Source: Escherichia phage 121Q
Direction: 5' to 3' (one strand)
DNA: 64,000 nt
Sequence record: NC_025447.1
Positions 11,479-13,001 of this stretch are shown one piece after another. The notes beneath the pieces were generated by a model, which did not search any database, was not told where the DNA came from, and saw only the letters and a program-made list of their open reading frames with translations. A program made the translations under genes and the position numbers. Position 1 is the stretch's first letter; the number at the start of each line of letters is the position of its first letter.

Positions 11479-12573
11479 ATGAGTGATTTTTTTGATTCAT
11501 TTGTCAGTACTGGTACAAGTATTGTAAATGGCGTTATTGATAATATAAACATTGTTCGTGAACCTGCTTTTCAGAACTATAATGCTGCACAACGTGTGTT
11601 TGGTACAGCAGGTGAAATGGGGTTTTCATTTTATAATTTACCAAAATTCAAAAATAGTTTTATCATAGAATTTGTTTTAACACCTTTTGCAAAAAACTTT
11701 ATTAAAACTCAATTACCAGATACACATACAGATTTTGATGTTAATAATGTATCATGTTTTGTTAAAGATGTAACTTTACCAAGTTTTTCATTTAATATTG
11801 AAACAGTAAACCAATATAACAAAAAACGACTAGTTACTGGTGACATTGTTTACAAACCAAGTAATGTCGTTTTTTATGATACCGTTGATGGTGCTGGTTA
11901 CTTACTAATGGATGCATATAGAAAGTTTTATTATGGTGATTTCTTTGATAAAAATCCACAGTCATATCGAAATGATGTTCTAAGTACACCTGAAAACTTT
12001 AATGGTTTAGGTGGTAACTGGGGACGTTCAGTAATGAACAATGGAAACTACGATAATCAGTACTTTTTCAAATCAATTAACATATATGAGATTGATAATG
12101 AAACATATACTGTACATAACATGATAAATGTATTCATTGAAGACGTACAATTAGAAACCAAATCTATGGAAAGTGAAGCAGACCCTTCATTAATATCGTT
12201 AACTATGCGATATGAAGCATGTAACAACTTCGGACCAGAAGGATATTTGAGCATTGGTGTACCAACTATGGAAATAGCACAACTAATAACAGACACAGAA
12301 GGTCTTGGTGTTAGTGGGTTTTTTAAGTATTTTGGTGAATTAGACGACAAAACCAAAGGAATTTTAACAATTGGTAAAATTATCCGAGCAGGTACGTCAG
12401 TTAGTGATATAATAAGTAGTGCTGGTGATATATTGCGTGGCGACATTACTCCTGACACAATTCGAAACATAGGTTCTGCTGTAACCAGAGGTGCTAACGC
12501 CATAGGGTTTGGTAGTTTGGTTTCTGAAGCAAGTTCAAAATTCGGATTAGGTAACATTTTAGGAGATTTTTAA
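11479..12573 (+). CDS. hypothetical structural protein, possibly tube initiator/cap (gp48/gp54-like)
   Basis: 364 aa, adjacent to tube paralogs; weak tube-like C-terminal pattern ([11 protein letters not shown]); by position and size only. Confidence 0.35.
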
Positions 12574-13001
12574 TGGCTTTCAATCAACAATTTAACCCAG
12601 CAAAGATAACAAATACTAAGCAAGCTCAAGGTATCTTTCCTATAAAAAACATTAAAAAGTATAAAAGTAATAATCAACCAATATACCGTAGTTCGTGGGA
12701 AAAGGACATAATGATTTCATTGGATAATAATCCAGCAGTCATTGAATGGAGTATTGAGCCGTTTAGTATTCCTTATGTTAGTCCAATAGATGGACAAGTC
12801 CACCAGTACTGGCCTGATTTTTATGTACTGTATATTGGTGCTGATGGTAAGCAACATGCTCAAGTACTAGAAGTCAAGCCATACAAACAATGCCACATGG
12901 AGTTGGCTAAATCCAAAAAAGAAAAAATTGCAGTTGCTATAAATCAATCCAAATGGGCTTATGCAATGGAATTTTGTAAAAATAACCGGATTGGAGTTTA
13001 A
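12573..13001 (+). CDS. PD-(D/E)xK nuclease-fold protein (possibly gp4-like head completion nuclease)
   Basis: Motifs YWPDFYVLY and QVLEVKPYK resemble restriction-endonuclease-like D...E.K catalytic core; 142 aa. Confidence 0.4.

Follow-up and report, generated by a model that had tools for sequence, protein, structure and literature searches.

The open reading frame (ORF) at positions 12573-13001 of the 64,000-nt stretch of Escherichia phage 121Q DNA analyzed here (sequence record NC_025447.1; the whole stretch is referred to as the window) encodes a 142-residue protein that resembles a small nuclease. This locus raises the questions of which nuclease is encoded here and whether the ORF represents the complete gene. 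The earlier note, made from the sequence alone, had proposed a PD-(D/E)xK-fold protein that could be a head-completion nuclease of the T4 gp4 type or another small nuclease. The assignment as a PD-(D/E)xK nuclease of the gp4 type holds true, was known before, and adds nothing new by itself, as the gene has been annotated and the family has been published. What is likely new is a conserved +1 break near the 3' end of the gene, not seen in the earlier note, together with a likely translational bypass, i.e., a known gene family and a known recoding class in a new setting. The features of the gene are as follows:

12573-13001, plus strand: nuclease ORF as annotated, 142 amino acids, ATG start
12573-12986, plus strand: zero-frame part of the gp4-like nuclease gene, codons 1-138 (M1 to N138), holding E43, D82, E100, and K102
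12699-12701, 12816-12818, 12870-12872, and 12876-12878, plus strand: codons of the catalytic residues E43, D82, E100, and K102, respectively
12981-12993, plus strand: proposed recoding site AAU AAC C GGA UUG (zero frame AAU_AAC_CGG_AUU_G), nucleotide-invariant in 12 sequences
12987-12989, plus strand: zero-frame CGG (Arg139), the sole CGG in the long ORFs of the window; C12987, absent from in-frame relatives, would be the base that is skipped
12988-13035, plus strand: +1-frame C-terminal segment of 15 residues plus TGA, corresponding to the conserved last beta-strand of the family, including F142 and E147
12999-13001, plus strand: zero-frame stop codon TAA, end of the 142-residue nonshifted product (CAA in some relatives)

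The +1 break and the selection on the segment behind it

Relatives with ≤78% identity were 148-164 residues long (most 150-154) and ended in frame with ...FC(K/Q)(K/R/N)NG(L/I)EFK(L/I/V)(I/V/L)TE(K/R)xLYKK. The window ORF and its three closest protein clusters ended with ...FCKNNRIGV or ...RIGIQNHYRKESI, followed in each case by a stop codon. The family-terminal (E/K)F..(I/L)TE strand was missing from the 142-residue ORF and was present only when the +1 frame was joined to it. The 15-residue segment encoded in this +1 frame, which has no start codon of its own, matched the in-frame C termini of all 54 more distant homologs, and its residues included the family-invariant F142 and E147. The +1-frame TGA (13033-13035) overlaps the ATG of the next gene (13032-13034) as ATGA, an arrangement that is also found in the in-frame relatives. 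When the window (AAT AAC C GGA TTG GAG TTT) was compared with the nearest in-frame DNA (AAA AAT GGA CTT GAG TTT), the difference in frame amounted to exactly one extra C, located directly 5' of GGA.

Joining the two frames also made the domain complete in profile searches. The 142-residue ORF covered positions 1-78 of the 85 positions of the Pfam model PF08722 (TnsA-like endonuclease N-terminal) and scored 60.7 bits against a cutoff of 26.5, whereas the joined 153-residue protein covered positions 1-85 and scored 75.9 bits. The score for phrog_218 ("head closure"), which the 142-residue ORF matched at 1.8e-40, rose from 139.4 to 158.4 bits upon joining. Moreover, a beta-strand modeled by AlphaFold (AF2) at residues 141-145 with a high predicted local distance difference test score (pLDDT) lies in the +1-encoded segment. 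The ORF is present as the earlier note described it, but it ends 11 residues short of the family length and, judged by its relatives, is evidently a truncated version of the gene.

Over 3.5 kb around the gene, the window showed 100% identity to Escherichia phages vB_EcoM_phAPEC6 and SP27 and 99.7% identity to PBECO4. These are ~350-kb jumbo myoviruses of the genus Asteriusvirus, to which the phage of the window belongs as well. The extra base was present in all 12 distinct Asteriusvirus-type sequences that were compared (Logan contigs, WPEC3, EC.P1, BF17, Turkey3, Turkey5, A4, UE-S1, and ph0011), and all of them encoded the identical 15-residue segment in the +1 frame. When the joined 153-residue protein was used as a tblastn query, the alignment stopped at residue 140 in 34 of the 34 records with ≥83% identity. 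The 26 lower-identity records among the matches listed, which included EJP2, 7t3, Munch, RaK2, K64-1, GAP32, CBB, fHe-Yen9, and Erwinia phages, aligned in one frame to residue 153, with one of them reaching only residue 147. Scans of IMG/VR and metagenomes added in-frame outgroups only. A sequencing or assembly error was rejected as the cause of the break, which is shared by 34 genome records of independent origin and by numerous Logan contigs. The record of phage CMSTMSU (MH494197.1, labeled UNVERIFIED) was left out of the statistics as probably error-prone; additional indels fall within the gene and behind it, the N terminus is called short, and the terminal A-run lacks one A.

The zero-frame tail, i.e., the sequence translated when the frame is not changed, varied in both sequence and length among the lineages. 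In phage A4 and a Logan contig, its stop codon reads CAA, and frame 0 runs to 151 residues. The break was noted in none of the 34 record annotations, where only the 142-residue (or 151-residue) ORF was called. Likewise, neither the conserved +1 break nor a translational bypass was found in the literature searched on Asteriusvirus, on PBECO4, or on head completion in connection with frameshifting.

Next to its conservation in amino acid sequence, the +1 segment carries the mark of selection at the codon level. Among the Asteriusvirus lineages, the pairwise synonymous substitution rate (dS) was 0.7-2.5 (1.5-2.5 against the window), with a ratio of nonsynonymous to synonymous rates (dN/dS) of 0.02-0.11 (0.02-0.05 against the window). 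Such values show that the gene is not in decay, and the 12 distinct sequences contained no further stop codons or indels. In the 45 nt past the extra C, six sites were variable (GAG/GAA, TTT/TTC, ATT/ATC, ATA/ATT, CTA/TTA, and TAC/TAT). None of the six alters the amino acid encoded in the +1 frame, and none is synonymous in frame 0, where they correspond to V/I, stop/Q, Y/H, N/Y, S/F, and Q/stop. Upstream of the break, the pattern was reversed: 83 of 148 variable sites were synonymous in frame 0, compared to 9 of 147 (about 6%) in the +1 frame. This reversal indicates that the +1-frame segment is under purifying selection, and it is likely that the segment is expressed as part of the protein.

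Two other sources of such a pattern were considered and rejected. The antisense ORF at 12867-13049 has its third-codon positions in common with the +1 frame and could thus mimic the pattern, but this ORF is interrupted by stop codons in 8 of 12 relatives, and only four of the six changes are synonymous in it. An N-terminal extension of the downstream gene was rejected because that gene is in frame 0.

The candidate recoding site and its rare codon

Homology places the junction of the two frames between K136 and the zero-frame stop. Within this interval, the stretch AAT AAC CGG ATT GGA was invariant in 12 of 12 sequences, with synonymous sites elsewhere near saturation. Such invariance was found for only 27% of comparable codons of conserved residues, while the other 73% varied. 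The N-N-G-L codons form one of the two longest invariant runs in the gene (four codons). The other invariant four-codon run is ACA GAA AGG AAT (13009-13020), which contains the rare codon AGG and the sequence AAGGA. This AAGGA may be the ribosome-binding site of the gene starting at 13032, despite the long spacing of ~13 nt.

The zero-frame codon at the junction is exceptional. CGG occurs once in the 19,868 codons of the 46 long ORFs of the window, exactly at the junction, and the next rarest codon occurs 11 times. In the genome of a 99.9%-identical phage (OR844650.1), CGG is the rarest sense codon, accounting for 36 of 99,100 codons, while out of frame the same trinucleotide occurs 360 times in one codon phase and 503 times in the other. 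Approximately 27 of these 36 in-frame CGG codons sit in short ORFs within a ~20-kb stretch at about 301-320 kb of OR844650.1, which suggests either a different codon usage of this stretch (foreign or early genes) or spurious ORF calls.

No tRNA genes were found in the window. ARAGORN identified seven tRNAs at 31069-34895 of OR844650.1, namely Thr(UGU), Asn(GUU), Met(CAU), Ser(ACU), Arg(UCU), Ser(UGA), and Gly(UCC); no Arg(CCG) tRNA was among them. The Asn(GUU) and Gly(UCC) tRNAs serve the codons that flank the skipped C. All seven tRNAs had normal three-base anticodons, and the Asn and Gly tRNAs, which were inspected, had 7-nt anticodon loops. The anticodon ACU of one of the Ser tRNAs is unusual, and position 37 of the Gly tRNA is G instead of A.

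From these features, we propose the following course of events. In this genus, the gene is split by one C inserted 5' of GGA, which leaves codons 1-138 in frame 0 and the C-terminal strand in the +1 frame. A ribosome holding peptidyl-tRNA-Asn on AAC would come to a pause at CGG, a very rare codon for which the host has little tRNA-Arg(CCG) and the phage provides none. The phage-encoded Gly-tRNA(UCC) would then read the overlapping GGA out of frame, and translation would run to the TGA that overlaps the next ATG. Such a +1 shift at AAU_AAC_CGG_A would yield a full-length nuclease of 153 residues. Ribosomes that do not shift would make the 142-residue protein, which lacks the last core strand and is probably inactive. 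The tRNA on AAC has no way to re-pair on ACC, so a Ty3 or "hungry codon" mechanism would apply here rather than a slip in the P site.

A +1 ribosomal shift weighed against other explanations

The last 15 residues are conserved in the +1 frame behind the rarest codon of the genome, and the full enzyme therefore probably needs a programmed frameshift. A +1 ribosomal shift at AAC_CGG_A is the probable way in which the frames are joined. We infer not only that ribosomes shift, but also the exact site, the efficiency, and the purpose of the shift. We lean toward a more comprehensive reading, namely that Asteriusvirus phages (jumbo phages of E. coli and Salmonella) make an essential head-completion nuclease only via a Ty3-like hungry-codon +1 shift at AAC_CGG_A, without peptidyl-tRNA slippage and without a Shine-Dalgarno or structural stimulator. 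The CGG codon, and possibly the phage's own tRNA-Gly(UCC) and tRNA-Asn, would thereby meter a toxic non-specific DNase.

Several observations weigh against the proposed shift. The nuclease product, gp272c, was not among the 62 virion proteins of phAPEC6. At the site, no upstream Shine-Dalgarno-like sequence was found that could act as a stimulator; local RNA folding was no better than that of shuffled sequences (z -0.27), and the consensus structure (-3.55 kcal/mol) had no covarying pairs and no Rfam match. The inability of the P-site tRNA to re-pair in the +1 frame (AAC to ACC) is unusual for bacterial +1 sites, and the efficiency of the shift could consequently be very low. The phage Gly(UCC) and Asn(GUU) tRNAs can also be accounted for simply by AT-rich codon usage. 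As for selection, the evidence downstream of the break consists of only 6 variable sites in 45 nt, and one part of these 45 nt, ACA GAA AGG AAT, may additionally be under constraint for ribosome binding to the next gene.

The most serious rival, which we nevertheless consider unlikely, is that no recoding takes place. The 142-residue zero-frame protein would then be the sole and sufficient product, the old C terminus would be dispensable, and the conservation in the +1 frame would stem from other constraints, e.g., on the initiation region of the next gene. Such a reading would be in line with the annotations, all of which call only the 142-residue (or 151-residue) ORF, with the position of the four catalytic residues upstream of the break, with the Shine-Dalgarno-like AAGGA in ACA GAA AGG AAT ahead of the next ATG, and with the lack of a detectable stimulator. 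However, an initiation region predicts no period-3 pattern in which six of six changes are synonymous in one frame, and the 100% amino acid identity of the 15-residue segment at a dS of 1.5-2.5 would be left unexplained. The segment that would be lost carries the family-invariant F142 and E147 and a confidently modeled core strand, while the zero-frame tail that would replace it is conserved neither in sequence nor in length. In addition, it would have to be a coincidence that the rarest codon of the genome has been kept right at the junction.

The same interval, from K136 to the zero-frame stop, is all that the comparative data require for joining, which leaves room for mechanisms other than a shift at AAC_CGG_A: a base could be lost through transcriptional slippage or editing, a special tRNA could decode a quadruplet, or the shift could occur at a neighboring position, e.g., at GUU_UAA as in prfB. 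In the window, GGA GUU UAA A indeed resembles a shift-prone codon followed by a stop codon, with GGAG just upstream. This prfB-like shift was rejected as a general mechanism, as UAA is replaced by CAA and GGAG by GGAA in several lineages that keep the break. Ribosomal or transcriptional slippage on the A-run at AAAAAT was rejected as well: there is no homopolymer, and the A5 run of the window reads AAG AAT in relatives. A frameshift-suppressor tRNA was rejected in view of the standard three-base anticodons of all seven tRNAs of OR844650.1 and the ordinary 7-nt loops of the Asn and Gly tRNAs. With the invariant block and the unique rare codon both pointing to AAC_CGG_A, joining by one of these other mechanisms is quite improbable.

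A decaying pseudogene, with the frameshift as a disabling mutation within the genus, is hardly credible. In its favor, a frame-breaking indel is located inside a conserved domain, and one record has a deletion across the catalytic ExK while two others have 12-nt gaps. On the other hand, dN/dS was 0.02-0.05 over lineages that all carry the break, the 12 distinct sequences were free of further stops or indels, and the break is fixed in 34 of 34 records with the downstream frame intact. In Salmonella phage SD-1_S14 (OR699183.1, 12089-12510; protein P0004), the 22 residues 85-106 are deleted, including E100-x-K102. SD-2_S15 and SD-6_S16 have gaps of about 12 nt in the gene, and these genomes are 25-40 kb shorter than those of their relatives. 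The deletion in SD-1_S14 is either an assembly artifact or a viable loss of nuclease activity. Should it prove genuine, some backgrounds may be able to do without the nuclease, a point that weighs against the proposed shift.

Should the +1 shift at AAC_CGG_A hold, the annotations of at least 34 genomes give a truncated protein, and a joined (recoded) coding sequence is therefore needed in these records. To our knowledge, productive +1 frameshifting is rare in bacteria and phages. The site would thus be a rare bacterial or phage case of Ty3-like hungry-codon recoding, and would offer a clean natural model of out-of-frame A-site decoding on E. coli ribosomes, driven by one ultra-rare sense codon. 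The break also suggests a way in which the phage could hold a non-specific DNase at very low, late-stage levels, although a small, tRNA-dependent amount of this enzyme late in infection is a speculative consequence of the shift.

The nuclease family, known recoding systems, and the gene neighborhood

The gene is almost certainly an ortholog of T4 gene 4. The alignment to T4 gp4 (NC_000866) by BLASTP, which the earlier note had suggested as a check, gave 31% identity with an E value of 1e-15, and the D and ExK of the D...E.K motif described in that note (YWPDFYV and QVLEVKPYK) are present as D82 and E100/K102, aligned with their counterparts in T4 gp4. Nuclease-fold matches were indeed returned by the profile searches, and T4 gp4 itself matched the same two families, PF08722 and phrog_218. 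Residues E43, D82, E100, and K102 were invariant columns in alignments of 16 and 44 sequences with relatives including T4 gp4. Because D82, E100, and K102 are invariant among relatives, the D...E.K pattern is not a chance match. Homologs were detected by tblastn in 2,558 phage records, mostly of T4-like phages and of cyanophages, where they are labeled head completion protein.

The structural comparison pointed to the same nuclease fold. The AF2 model, built from 44 sequences, had a mean pLDDT of 89.4, and its only significant Foldseek matches in the PDB were to TnsA (1f1z, E 4.6e-4, probability 1.00; also 1t0f and 9bw1). A direct sequence search of the PDB with the single protein yielded nothing useful. 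A profile search gave weak matches to T7 endonuclease I over the Y.PDF motif, which agree with a fold prediction made for gp4 in 2005 (PMC1189080).

Benler 2020 (as cited in PMC7824862) describes T4 gp4 as a non-specific DNase on which morphogenesis depends, and the nuclease activity of T4 gp4 is required for head-tail joining (Benler 2020 as cited in PMC7824862 and PMC11895373). By homology with this family literature, the window protein would act in head completion and head-tail joining. For the 99%-identical phage Sharanji, the same function has already been assigned (PMC11895373). Public records name the gene "head completion protein", "head closure protein", or "head completion nuclease", and the identical protein in UniRef is named "Head completion nuclease".

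T4 gp4 and the window protein share the E...D...ExK arrangement; with the +1 frame joined, the window protein would also match T4 gp4 as a single domain of ~150 residues with the terminal F..(I/L)TE strand. T4 gene 4, like all homologs inspected outside Asteriusvirus, is one uninterrupted ORF, unlike the window gene with its 15 terminal codons in the +1 frame. The neighbors differ as well: T4 gene 4 lies between genes 2 and 53, whereas the window gene follows the sheath and three tube paralogs. The catalytic domain of Tn7 TnsA (1f1z and 1t0f) shares the PD-(D/E)xK core over 147 aligned columns of the window model, but at only 14% identity. Moreover, TnsA has an extra C-terminal domain and acts in a transposase complex, while the window has no transposon context.

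Among known recoding events, a close parallel in the same translation system as that of the phage is E. coli yehP. In this gene, a peptide spanning the site confirmed a +1 shift at GTT_CGG_C, where the slow codon in the A site is CGG (PMC2790909), and CGG is documented in E. coli as a slow A-site codon with a scarce tRNA of about 639 copies per cell (PMC2790909). The shifting in yehP is low-level and gives a truncated product, whereas the shifted frame in the phage encodes a conserved, presumably functional end. The prfB site (CUU_UGA_C) relies on a stop codon, a P-site slip, and an upstream Shine-Dalgarno sequence. At the phage site, by contrast, no Shine-Dalgarno sequence was found, and re-pairing in the P site is impossible. 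In glass-sponge mitochondria, a +1 shift occurs at extremely rare CGG_(A) codons in which the inserted base precedes GGA, and it has been read as Ty3-like (PMC5009743). The phage site resembles these CGG_(A)/UGG_(A) sites in that an extra base 5' of GGA creates a rare zero-frame CGG, and in that the indel would be "corrected" in a conserved gene. As in Ty3-type events, the shift is proposed to proceed without peptidyl-tRNA slippage. However, the Ty3 and glass-sponge cases are eukaryotic or mitochondrial, whereas the phage site is a predicted one on E. coli ribosomes.

The nuclease gene is part of a morphogenesis block of a T4-related myovirus. Its start region includes the following element:

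12561-12565, plus strand: Shine-Dalgarno-like AGGAG, 7 nt 5' of the ATG, read from the sequence

The overlap with the upstream structural gene, which the earlier note had given as TAATG, was confirmed: the ATG of the nuclease gene (12573-12575) overlaps the TAA (12571-12573) of a 364-residue protein gene, the third of the tube paralogs. In order, the block consists of the tail sheath gene (6851-9514), three tandem tail-tube paralogs, and the nuclease gene, with adaptor and dNMP kinase genes also located upstream of the latter. Further downstream, the 180-residue ORF at 14154-14696 is named "Hsp70 heat shock protein" in several records via phrog_16152. This ORF had no Pfam HSP70 match and is far too short for that name, which looks like annotation drift. 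The tube paralogs (9910-10596, 10691-11467, and 11479-12573) matched phrog_4542 (twice) and phrog_13438, and the first two have near-identical N termini. All three of the corresponding proteins (gp275c, gp274c, and gp273c) were detected by mass spectrometry in phAPEC6 virions, which suggests a composite or specialized tube.

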